This document shows positions 19,666 through 20,850 of a DNA stretch of 64,000 nt, piece after piece. The translations under genes were made by a program, and so were the position numbers. The notes beneath the pieces were generated by a model that had not been told where the DNA came from, did no database searches, and worked only from the letters and a program-made list of their open reading frames with translations. Origin of the DNA: Candidatus Parcubacteria bacterium (GTDB taxonomy: Bacteria; Patescibacteriota; Minisyncoccia; Phycocordibacterales; PALSA-1337); assembly GCA_963766795.1 (NCBI GenBank), contig CAVYBN010000009.1:14740-78739 (forward strand), in the 5' to 3' direction. The first letter of the stretch is position 1; every line of letters starts with the position of its first letter.

Positions 19666-20850
19666 ATGAAATATCCCGTCTTTTCTGGTAGAGTTATGGG
19701 CATTCCCATGAGACGCAATATCGTCATAACCGACAAGGATGAGCAGAAGATTTTGAAGACGCTGGAGAAGCGCACCGACTTCAAGAGTCTGCGCATGAAG
19801 CGTCTTTTGGCCTTGCCGGATCTGACGAAAAAAACCGATTCACCCGTGAAGATCCTGGTTGATCGGATCTTAGATCTGCCGAGATTTAAGGATTTCGACA
19901 CAGTGGATTTCCCGCGTATCGTTACCGTAGAGCAAGATTTCGACCTCTTGAACACGCCCAAGGACCACCCCAGCCGGCGCGAGACTGACACCTATTATGT
20001 CGACGAGACGCACCTCCTGCGCACGCAGATGACCGCTTTCTGGTCATTCTATCTGAAGGATTCCGAGGTCTTGAAGCGATTGGAGACGGAAGGGGAGATC
20101 AAGGCGCTGTCTCCCGGCATCGTATTCAGGAAAGATGAGATAGATCGGCATCATTTCCCGGCTTTCCATCAGATCGACGGATTATTGATCTGCAAGAAAT
20201 CAAAGAAGGTCATCACACAGAATGACTTGAAAGATGTCCAAGCGGATCTGGCCAAGGGCATATTCGGGCCCAAGATCGAATACAAATTCTTGGACGACGA
20301 TTTCCCGTACACTGTCGAGAGCCTCGAGATGGACATCATGTTCAACAGGGCATGGCTCGAAGTCAACGGCGCCGGCCTGGTCAATCCAGTGGTGCTCCGA
20401 AATTTCGGCATCGACCCCGAGATCTACAACGGCTGGGCTTTCGGCTTCGGCGAGCGGCTGGCCATGATCAAGATGGGCATCCCCGACATCCGCATCCTCT
20501 GGTCCGATGACCCGCGCATCACCCGGCAATTCAAGGACATAGATTCCAAATACAAGGAAGTCAGCAAGTATCCGTCCACCTTGCGCGACATCTCTTTCGT
20601 CGTCGACAAGGGCGTCAGCCTGAACAATTATTTCGAGATCGTCCGCGAATACGCCGGCAACCTGATCGAAGAAGCCAAATTGCTCGACACATACGAGAAT
20701 CCCGAGAAATTCGGCGCCGGCAAGGTCAGCTACACCTTCCGCATCGTATATTGCTCGCCGGAGCGCACGCTCACCAACGACGAAGTTAATTCGATTCAAG
20801 ACAAGATTCGCACCAAGACCGAGAGCGAGCTCAAAGCGGTGTTGAGGTAA
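19666..20850 (+). CDS. pheS: Phenylalanine--tRNA ligase, single-chain type: PheS catalytic core plus a C-terminal FDX-ACB anticodon-binding domain
   Basis: Class II motifs ([55 protein letters not shown]), followed by [14 protein letters not shown]...[22 protein letters not shown]. The start codon is uncertain. Confidence 0.9.
   Translation: [394 protein letters not shown]

Follow-up and report, generated by a model that had tools for sequence, protein, structure and literature searches.

A probable single-chain phenylalanyl-tRNA synthetase encoded at the pheS-pheT position in a branch of Paceibacteria

The locus and its single-chain gene

A stretch of 64,000 nucleotides from the genome of an ultra-small bacterium of the Candidate Phyla Radiation, CPR (Candidatus Parcubacteria; assembly GCA_963766795.1, contig CAVYBN010000009.1, forward strand, positions 14,740 to 78,739), referred to below as the window, contains an open reading frame (ORF) that probably encodes an unusual phenylalanyl-tRNA synthetase (PheRS). 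PheRS is the textbook obligate (alpha-beta)2 synthetase of bacteria, archaea and the eukaryotic cytosol, and a monomeric form is regarded as a peculiarity of organelles. The original prediction, made from the letters of the window, held that the ORF joins a PheS-type catalytic core and a ferredoxin-fold anticodon-binding (FDX-ACB) domain in one mitochondrial-type chain, that no pheT lies nearby, and that a monomeric enzyme would fit genome minimisation. The features of the locus are collected in Table 1.

The ORF spans positions 19666 to 20850 of the plus strand (394 amino acids, aa), and the peptides quoted in the original prediction are present in its translation. Pfam profiles place the catalytic core (PF01409, tRNA-synt_2d) at residues 54-289 (E=5.6e-53) and, exactly where it had been proposed, a full-length FDX-ACB domain (PF03147, profile positions 1-94 of 94) at residues 300-394 (E=6.3e-24; 84.7 bits, the gathering score being 31.1 bits). 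The predicted union of both domains in one polypeptide, with FDX-ACB at the C-terminus as in single-chain PheRS, was thus confirmed by two highly significant matches. In the same Pfam analysis the protein showed no match to PF02912, the N-terminal coiled-coil domain of PheS, and no B3/B4 editing domain; B1, B5 and B6/7 are also missing. The best sequence matches in the PDB are human mitochondrial PheRS (~1e-52), with bacterial PheS alpha chains behind (~1e-40), and a separate match links the C-terminus to the final domain of bacterial PheT.

Two upstream in-frame ATG codons of the ORF are probably unused, that at 19666 giving 394 aa and that at 19696, called by NCBI, 384 aa. Over 100 homologs share a length of about 380 aa, and sequence conservation sets in at Met15; the real start is therefore probably the third in-frame ATG, at 19708, where the tblastn alignment to the related locus L001 also begins.

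When the whole window was searched with E. coli PheT and PheS (tblastn), the ORF at 19666-20850 was the sole match: PheS aligned with its core (38% identity) and the FDX-ACB region of PheT with its C-terminus. None of the ten largest other ORFs of the window encodes PheT, all of their products being unrelated proteins. The claim that pheT is absent from the vicinity therefore holds over 64 kb.

An AlphaFold2 model of the protein reached a predicted local distance difference test score (pLDDT) of 75 and a predicted template modelling score (pTM) of 0.63, and was weakest at the motif-2 loop and the inter-domain linker. Prediction of the structure, a check proposed together with the original prediction, identified human mitochondrial PheRS as the best full-length fold match, with a template modelling (TM) score of about 0.7: the top Foldseek matches (5mgh, 5mgv and 3cmq) gave TM scores of 0.67-0.72 over ~390 columns for the closed state of the human enzyme. 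The different orientation of the domains in the open, tRNA-bound state explains its poorer match (TM 0.51).

Table 1. Position of the single-chain PheRS gene, its domains and its flanking features in the window
Feature	Position	Strand	Basis or remark
rpsB, left flank	17451-18227	+	tblastn with RpsB of L001; synteny
tsf, left flank	18349-18933	+	conserved portion of ORF 18082-18933
Small conserved hypothetical gene between tsf and tRNA-Thr	19003-19389	+	synteny
Inverted-repeat arms (25 nt, TTTTGAN units) around tRNA-Thr	19509-19656 (19509-19533, 19623-19647 and overlapping variants)		92% complementary
tRNA-Thr(UGU), upstream cassette boundary	19544-19618	+	ARAGORN and Rfam
Single-chain PheRS coding sequence	19708-20850	+	probable product of 380 aa; homolog lengths, tblastn to L001, family conservation
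Class II PheRS catalytic core	19825-20532	+	PF01409; motifs invariant in 120 homologs
Inter-domain linker/hinge, start	20533-20562	+	AlphaFold2 pLDDT <50 at residues 252-286
C-terminal FDX-ACB domain	20563-20847	+	PF03147, full length; FDX-ACB tree
gyrB, right flank	22117-24300	+	ORF translation; follows single-chain gene or pheT in related loci

Chromosomal position and displacement of pheS-pheT

The single-chain gene belongs to a conserved chromosomal block with the order rpsB - tsf - hypothetical gene - tRNA-Thr(UGU) - PheRS cassette - gyrB. An 858-kb JGI contig matches the window in this respect (rpsB, tsf, hypothetical gene, tRNA-Thr(UGU), two small genes, the homolog and, further downstream, gyrB), and the same tRNA-Thr lies upstream of the single-chain gene at the related loci L001 and L002. 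It is also located upstream of pheS-pheT at many loci, including that of the Paceibacterales metagenome-assembled genome (MAG) PMX_810_sub, whose genes, tabulated in reverse, have the order rpsB - tsf - hypothetical gene - tRNA-Thr(tgt) - hypothetical gene - pheS - pheT (PMC10936435, PMC9600506). The complete gene table of this MAG lists one pheS, one pheT and zero copies of the single-chain gene (PMC9600506). The small hypothetical gene preceding tRNA-Thr in the window has same-position copies, 30-53% identical, in both single-chain and pheST loci.

A 30-nt stretch of tRNA-Thr served as an anchor independent of PheRS; it yielded 120 loci each from GTDB species genomes and JGI metagenomes. pheS followed by pheT was present at 12 of the former and 16 of the latter, the single-chain gene at 5 and 7, respectively, and no locus of either set contained both. 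Across all 240 Patescibacteria loci, 28 thus have pheS and pheT, 12 have the single-chain gene and none has the two together; at the rest, the stored block contained no PheRS gene. Whichever cassette is present, it is preceded by rpsB and tsf and followed by gyrB. A pheT partner was found in none of the 12 single-chain slots of this set, nor at the L001, L002 and L131 loci.

Two loci, L129 and L131, share a left flank of 12 genes (including S8-L6-L18-S5-L15-SecY-rpsB-tsf-hypothetical gene-GT2) at 70-90% aa identity. This flank is followed in L129 by pheS (228 aa), DUF1653, an ORF, pheT (652 aa) and gyrB, and in L131 by a 380-aa single-chain gene and then gyrB; the cassette is the only difference between these two related contigs. 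Genomes of the pheST type are as near to the window as those of the single-chain type: the RpsB, Tsf and GyrB proteins of L057 (pheST) are 68, 74 and 80% identical to those of the window, and the values for L110 (single-chain) are 69, 70 and 80%. Because the gene fills the exact pheS-pheT slot of related genomes, the evidence for the single-chain reading is stronger than the original prediction had expected.

Co-occurrence of the two systems was also examined from the side of PheT. Among the 120 nearest relatives of the L057 PheT, none shares a contig or locus-tag prefix with the single-chain list, which includes contigs of 858, 675, 539 and 470 kb. In a control, the nearest relatives of the L057 Tsf comprised 5 contigs with the single-chain gene, 8 with PheT and 0 with both. 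Single-chain genomes therefore occur in the close neighbourhood of L057, and their PheT is absent among the PheT relatives; since the matching is a same-contig test, it does not prove that pheT is missing genome-wide.

The conserved surroundings also bear on whether a eukaryotic gene for a mitochondrial-targeted protein, or a viral gene, might have been mis-assembled into a bacterial contig. The best PDB matches are indeed mitochondrial, and relatives of the protein are found on huge-phage and giant-virus contigs. However, the viral relatives from IMG/VR are only 31-40% identical to the window protein (family-alignment scan), and the embedding between bacterial rpsB/tsf/tRNA-Thr and gyrB recurs in many independent NCBI, JGI, ENA and Logan assemblies, including the 858-kb contig. 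Contamination is refuted by this synteny, and we consider it extremely improbable.

The suggested link with genome minimisation fits a reductive series, in which PheT of the sister lineages measures 790 aa, ~600-660 aa, or ~435 and 406 aa (the last two without the B3/4 editing domain), and is finally, it is presumed, lost altogether. Long PheT proteins are encoded by L106 and probably by L119, and an NlpC/P60 peptidase domain is inserted in the 790-aa PheT of Yonathbacteria.

Homologs, curated models and phylogeny

In a search of 5.8 billion proteins, 4,644 matched at E <= 1e-10, a count that takes in other PheS-like sequences too. The best 120 of these are 76-100% identical to the window protein, about 380 aa long and possess both domains; all come from Patescibacteria MAGs (Taylorbacteria, Nealsonbacteria and Pacebacteria), and they are named "hypothetical protein" by NCBI and "PheRS alpha chain" by JGI. 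An exhaustive search of representative sequences gave only 229 clusters at E <= 1e-30. Database matches longer than 600 aa were considered as possible PheT proteins and rejected, since they are AlaRS-PheRS or PheRS-methyltransferase fusions, or merged gene models.

The NCBI copies carry no PheRS name because the protein passes no curated NCBIfam cutoff. Its top match by E-value is NF051887 (SrmL, "PheS-related mystery ligase"; 242.3 bits, cutoff 300), and it also scores below the cutoffs of pheS_mito (TIGR00469; 242.2 bits, cutoff 258.35) and pheS (TIGR00468; 161.5 bits, cutoff 237.45). The score of its C-terminus with the pheT model is 81.6 bits. TIGR00469 is passed (260-434 bits) by several compact phage or environmental proteins and by a choanoflagellate protein.

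Trees of the catalytic core (neighbour-joining, simple distances, 220 columns) separated four groups. Eukaryotic mitochondrial PheRS formed one of them together with compact forms, two of which reside on huge-phage-like contigs (bootstrap 88-100%). Canonical PheS, including that of Paceibacteria, formed another (100%), as did the true SrmL proteins P0240, P0195, P0227 and P0244 (100%). The window protein fell into a clade of its own (77-98%), comprising the tight family to which it belongs plus an Oligoflexia protein, a diverged CPR subclade, and the protein P0126. The comparison with mitochondrial and bacterial PheS that had been proposed as a check therefore placed it neither in the mitochondrial clade nor in the canonical PheS group. 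A tree of FDX-ACB domains separated all PheT-borne domains from all single-chain ones (97% bootstrap). Taken together, the trees indicate that the window protein belongs to the single-chain lineage, outside the mitochondrial family proper. The label "mitochondrial-type" is thus apt as regards layout and fold, and fails as regards family membership, considering both the pheS_mito score and the separate clade.

Several members of the window clade have features of their own. The Oligoflexia protein (414 aa; L004, MAG GCA_019694465.1, contig JAIBBV010000034.1) is 50% identical to that of the window and is sister to the tight CPR family (80% bootstrap); its gene has metabolic neighbours of a non-CPR kind (M20 peptidase, GCS2, MR_MLE, beta-lactamase) and could have left CPR by horizontal transfer or have been binned wrongly. 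The diverged CPR subclade (L019, L070, L108, L151, L165, L193, L224 and L241; 41-48% identity) is encoded in the same slot, usually on the opposite strand, beside gyrB. In L019 and L070 it shows Gly at the acidic position of motif 2 (FHQMGG), and a motif 3 without the deletion described below. At the locus of P0126, a basal member of the clade (Logan contig L127), the gene read with translation table 11 fails to yield the recorded protein, which suggests an alternative genetic code in this organism, possibly one in which UGA is read as an amino acid, as happens in some CPR classes.

Single-chain relatives are also found in viruses. Two huge-phage-like contigs, L005 (ENA, 340,874 bp) and L128 (Logan, 160,460 bp), encode a compact PheRS of about 350 aa amid many small hypothetical genes on one strand and genes for PhageMetallopep, PcfJ, Thy1 and dCMP deaminase. 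The proteins P0135 and P0138 score above the pheS_mito cutoff and cluster with mitochondrial PheRS, which points tentatively to a connection between viruses and the mitochondrial enzyme. IMG/VR contains 14 viral contigs with relatives (L134-L147), including phages of 200-430 kb and giant-virus MAGs (one of 1.47 Mb); a scan of viral contigs with the phage-type P0135 found nothing.

These data allow an assessment of whether the gene arose by a recent local deletion in pheT that fused the resident pheS to the 3' end of pheT, thereby converging on the mitochondrial layout. The gene is situated exactly at the pheS-pheT position of its relatives, PheT is progressively shortened in the sister lineages, and the summed pheS and pheT C-terminal scores approximate the pheS_mito score, so that the protein has no special affinity for the mitochondrial hidden Markov model. 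Against this origin, identity between the core and the PheS of neighbouring Paceibacteria reaches only 31-36%, whereas those PheS proteins are 44-53% identical to E. coli PheS. Since canonical PheS excludes the window clade in the core trees, and since even the FDX-ACB domains of the nearest PheT neighbours stand apart from the single-chain ones, we reject a recent local fusion and regard it as a very unlikely origin.

Active site and sequence conservation

The protein has the motifs 2 (fRxD...FHQxEG) and 3 (GxAFGxGxER) of class II synthetases of the PheRS subclass, with their arginines (positions below in 380-aa numbering). DHPSR (86-90), LRTQMT and FPYT (199-202) are invariant in 120 homologs. 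Motif 2 reads FRKDEID...FHQIDG, with R141, Q155 and D157, R141 and FHQIDG being invariant in the family, and motif 3 reads GWAFGFG-(E/D)RL (242-251), with an invariant R250. Equally invariant in the 120 homologs are a Thr and an Ala, the counterparts of E. coli T251 and A294, two residues that set the size of the phenylalanine pocket.

Three departures are fixed in the family: FHQIDG has Asp in place of Glu, FPYT has Tyr in place of the second Phe of the usual FPF, and motif 3 has lost one residue before ER. The altered Glu corresponds to E220 of Thermus thermophilus PheRS, which contacts the amino group of the substrate. We considered the Glu to Asp change as a loss of function and rejected this idea: the same Asp is present in P0135 and P0161, both above the pheS_mito cutoff, and is therefore evidently tolerated. 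A shift in specificity (towards tyrosine, meta-tyrosine or another aromatic compound), or dependence on a trans-acting editing partner, could also be envisaged from these departures, from the lack of an editing domain and from the Gly at the acidic position in the sister subclade. However, the Asp of the pheS_mito-passing proteins and the invariant Thr and Ala of the pocket floor argue against it, and the nearest pheST-type relatives already lack the editing domain. Moreover, the gene replaces the only PheRS genes of the slot, and the cell must therefore still obtain Phe-tRNA-Phe from some source. Such a shift seems to us decidedly unlikely.

Among single-chain genomes, pairwise identity is 74-83% for the single-chain protein, 77-83% for GyrB, 68-79% for Tsf and 54-76% for RpsB, a pattern that points to a constrained housekeeping gene. 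A recent horizontal sweep, tried as an explanation of the high identity, is unsupported, as the divergence of the single-chain protein tracks that of GyrB.

The same evidence can be set against the possibility that the protein is an accessory PheS-like ligase such as SrmL, acting on a substrate other than tRNA-Phe, with PheST encoded elsewhere. SrmL is the top NCBIfam match and is weakly sister to the window clade in the core tree (60%), and the relative in the Oligoflexia MAG has a non-housekeeping context. True SrmL proteins, however, score 359-442 bits with NF051887, well apart from the sub-cutoff score of the window protein, and their active site is remodelled: in the four members HP[AS]R is lost, and HPYT and GLA[ML]G/GWALG stand where the window protein keeps DHPSR, FPYT and GWAFG. 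The one SrmL locus with a readable context (L133; Logan, 42,446 bp; 387 bits) has the gene divergently adjoining radical-SAM, NUDIX-like and Asn-synthase/QueC-like genes, and looks like an accessory modification or biosynthetic cassette; the window gene, in contrast, occupies the pheST-replacing slot between rpsB-tsf and gyrB and is conserved about as strongly as gyrB. An SrmL-like role is therefore unlikely in our view.

Proposed function and significance

We conclude that an editing-free, one-chain housekeeping PheRS has most likely displaced pheST in place in this branch of Paceibacteria. This reading draws on the architecture, fold and PheRS motifs of the protein, on its strong conservation, on the positional replacement, and on the non-co-occurrence with pheS-pheT in the sampled loci. 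The class II core would activate phenylalanine with ATP (forming Phe-AMP) and transfer it to the 3' end of tRNA-Phe, whose GAA anticodon would be read by FDX-ACB, a domain located in ordinary bacteria at the far end of the beta subunit. A flexible hinge may swing the domains from a closed to an open arrangement upon tRNA binding, as in human mitochondrial PheRS. The enzyme would act as one chain, presumably a monomer, and post-transfer editing would be absent. Since it lacks the B3/B4 domain, its accuracy should depend on the active site alone. Such a loss fits the lineage, because the nearest pheST-type relatives already have a short PheT (~406-435 aa) devoid of this domain.

Several points weigh against this conclusion. 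The structural model is of moderate confidence only, the neighbour-joining trees based on simple distances are open to possible long-branch effects, and the protein remains below the curated cutoff of every NCBIfam PheRS model. The three fixed departures in the active site could reflect an altered specificity. The absence of pheT was observed at the scale of the window, the slot and the contig, and for the rest of the genome it is presumed. Aminoacylation, the monomeric state and the hinge motion are, likewise, attributed to the protein by homology.

The two-domain single-chain architecture is already known, and its bacterial version is apparently undescribed in the searchable literature: searches on SrmL, on monomeric or mitochondrial-like bacterial PheRS and on CPR PheRS found no description of a single-chain PheRS from bacteria or CPR, and supplementary tables of other Patescibacteria papers contained no PheRS rows. 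AARS Online lists PheRS-M solely under the FARS2 type (PMC11580382), and many CPR PheT proteins are known to lack the B2 domain (PMC5370408).

The one-piece PheRS is thus very probably a working enzyme in a large bacterial group as well, which implies that 380 residues without editing suffice for cellular translation outside organelles. Such genomes will be scored as lacking pheS and pheT by marker sets and completeness estimates built on TIGR00468 and TIGR00472, since the protein does not reach the former cutoff and has no beta subunit of the latter type. The origin of mitochondrial PheRS, hitherto unexplained, can now be tested with actual relatives from bacteria and phages. Moreover, the protein offers a compact natural scaffold for the engineering of PheRS/tRNA pairs.

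More speculatively, single-chain PheRS might be an old bacterial and viral lineage, of which the CPR clade, SrmL and the huge-phage forms are surviving branches and from whose pool mitochondrial PheRS was recruited. The Paceibacteria cassette would then have repeatedly displaced the two-gene enzyme by recombination between the strongly conserved flanks, tsf/tRNA-Thr on one side and gyrB on the other; such events would account for the interleaving of the cassettes among close relatives. We put this scenario forward tentatively, judging it rather doubtful at present; if true, it would have a parallel in the RNA polymerase and Twinkle helicase of mitochondria, which derive from phages.

Other features of the window

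The inverted repeat around tRNA-Thr (Table 1) may be a tRNA-processing stem, a regulatory element, or a recombination element or scar. Related units are also present near 15393-15414 and 35842-35863, and similar units adjoin the tRNA-Ser/tRNA-Glu cluster. Another strong tRNA (Rfam, 62.5 bits), located at 32674-32748 (+), forms a clean cloverleaf with an 8-nt anticodon loop, UUGAUCGU; ARAGORN reports it as tRNA-??? with the four-base anticodon "gatc". A DUF3800-IX small RNA (Rfam, 51.6 bits, above the gathering score) occupies positions 16576-16642 (+), and directly beside it lies an ORF (16648-17289, -) whose product appears DUF3800-like, judging from its sequence and position. Finally, a 453-aa ORF at 43981-45342 (-) encodes an HGTP anticodon-binding domain together with a sub-threshold match to the HisRS core (22.9 bits, cutoff 25), and may represent a divergent class IIa synthetase.

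Comparison with known systems

The closest counterpart in layout is mitochondrial PheRS (human FARS2, yeast MSF1; "PheRS-M" in AARS Online; TIGR00469; PDB 3CMQ for the closed form and 3TUP for the open form with tRNA). The mitochondrial and window proteins each consist of a single chain in which a hinge joins the class II core of PheS type to a C-terminal FDX-ACB domain, and both are devoid of the N-terminal coiled coil, the beta subunit and the editing domain. The window protein differs in lacking a ~30-residue insertion of the human enzyme and in having its own FHQIDG, FPYT and shortened motif 3, and its gene resides in a bacterial chromosome, at the pheST locus.

With canonical (alpha-beta)2 PheRS (TIGR00468, TIGR00472) the window protein shares the catalytic motifs, the type of anticodon-binding domain and the chromosomal slot. 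However, it consists of one 380-aa chain instead of subunits of ~230-350 aa and 400-800 aa, and its core is only 31-38% identical to canonical PheS. The short PheT proteins of sister Paceibacteria (L057, L026 and L016) belong to the same lineage and slot and represent the same direction of reduction, including the loss of proofreading. Unlike the window, these genomes retain a two-gene alpha/beta enzyme, whose beta subunit is composed of B5, a catalytic-like module and FDX-ACB.

The remaining comparisons concern other single-chain proteins. SrmL has the same two-domain layout and a similar length, and is possibly the sister clade, although it is set apart by its higher NF051887 scores and remodelled active site. 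The huge-phage and giant-virus forms (P0135/P0277, P0138 and those of the 14 IMG/VR contigs) likewise combine a PheS core with FDX-ACB in ~350 aa. Of these, only P0135 and P0138 were placed in the trees, and both belong to the mitochondrial clade, whereas the window protein lies outside it.

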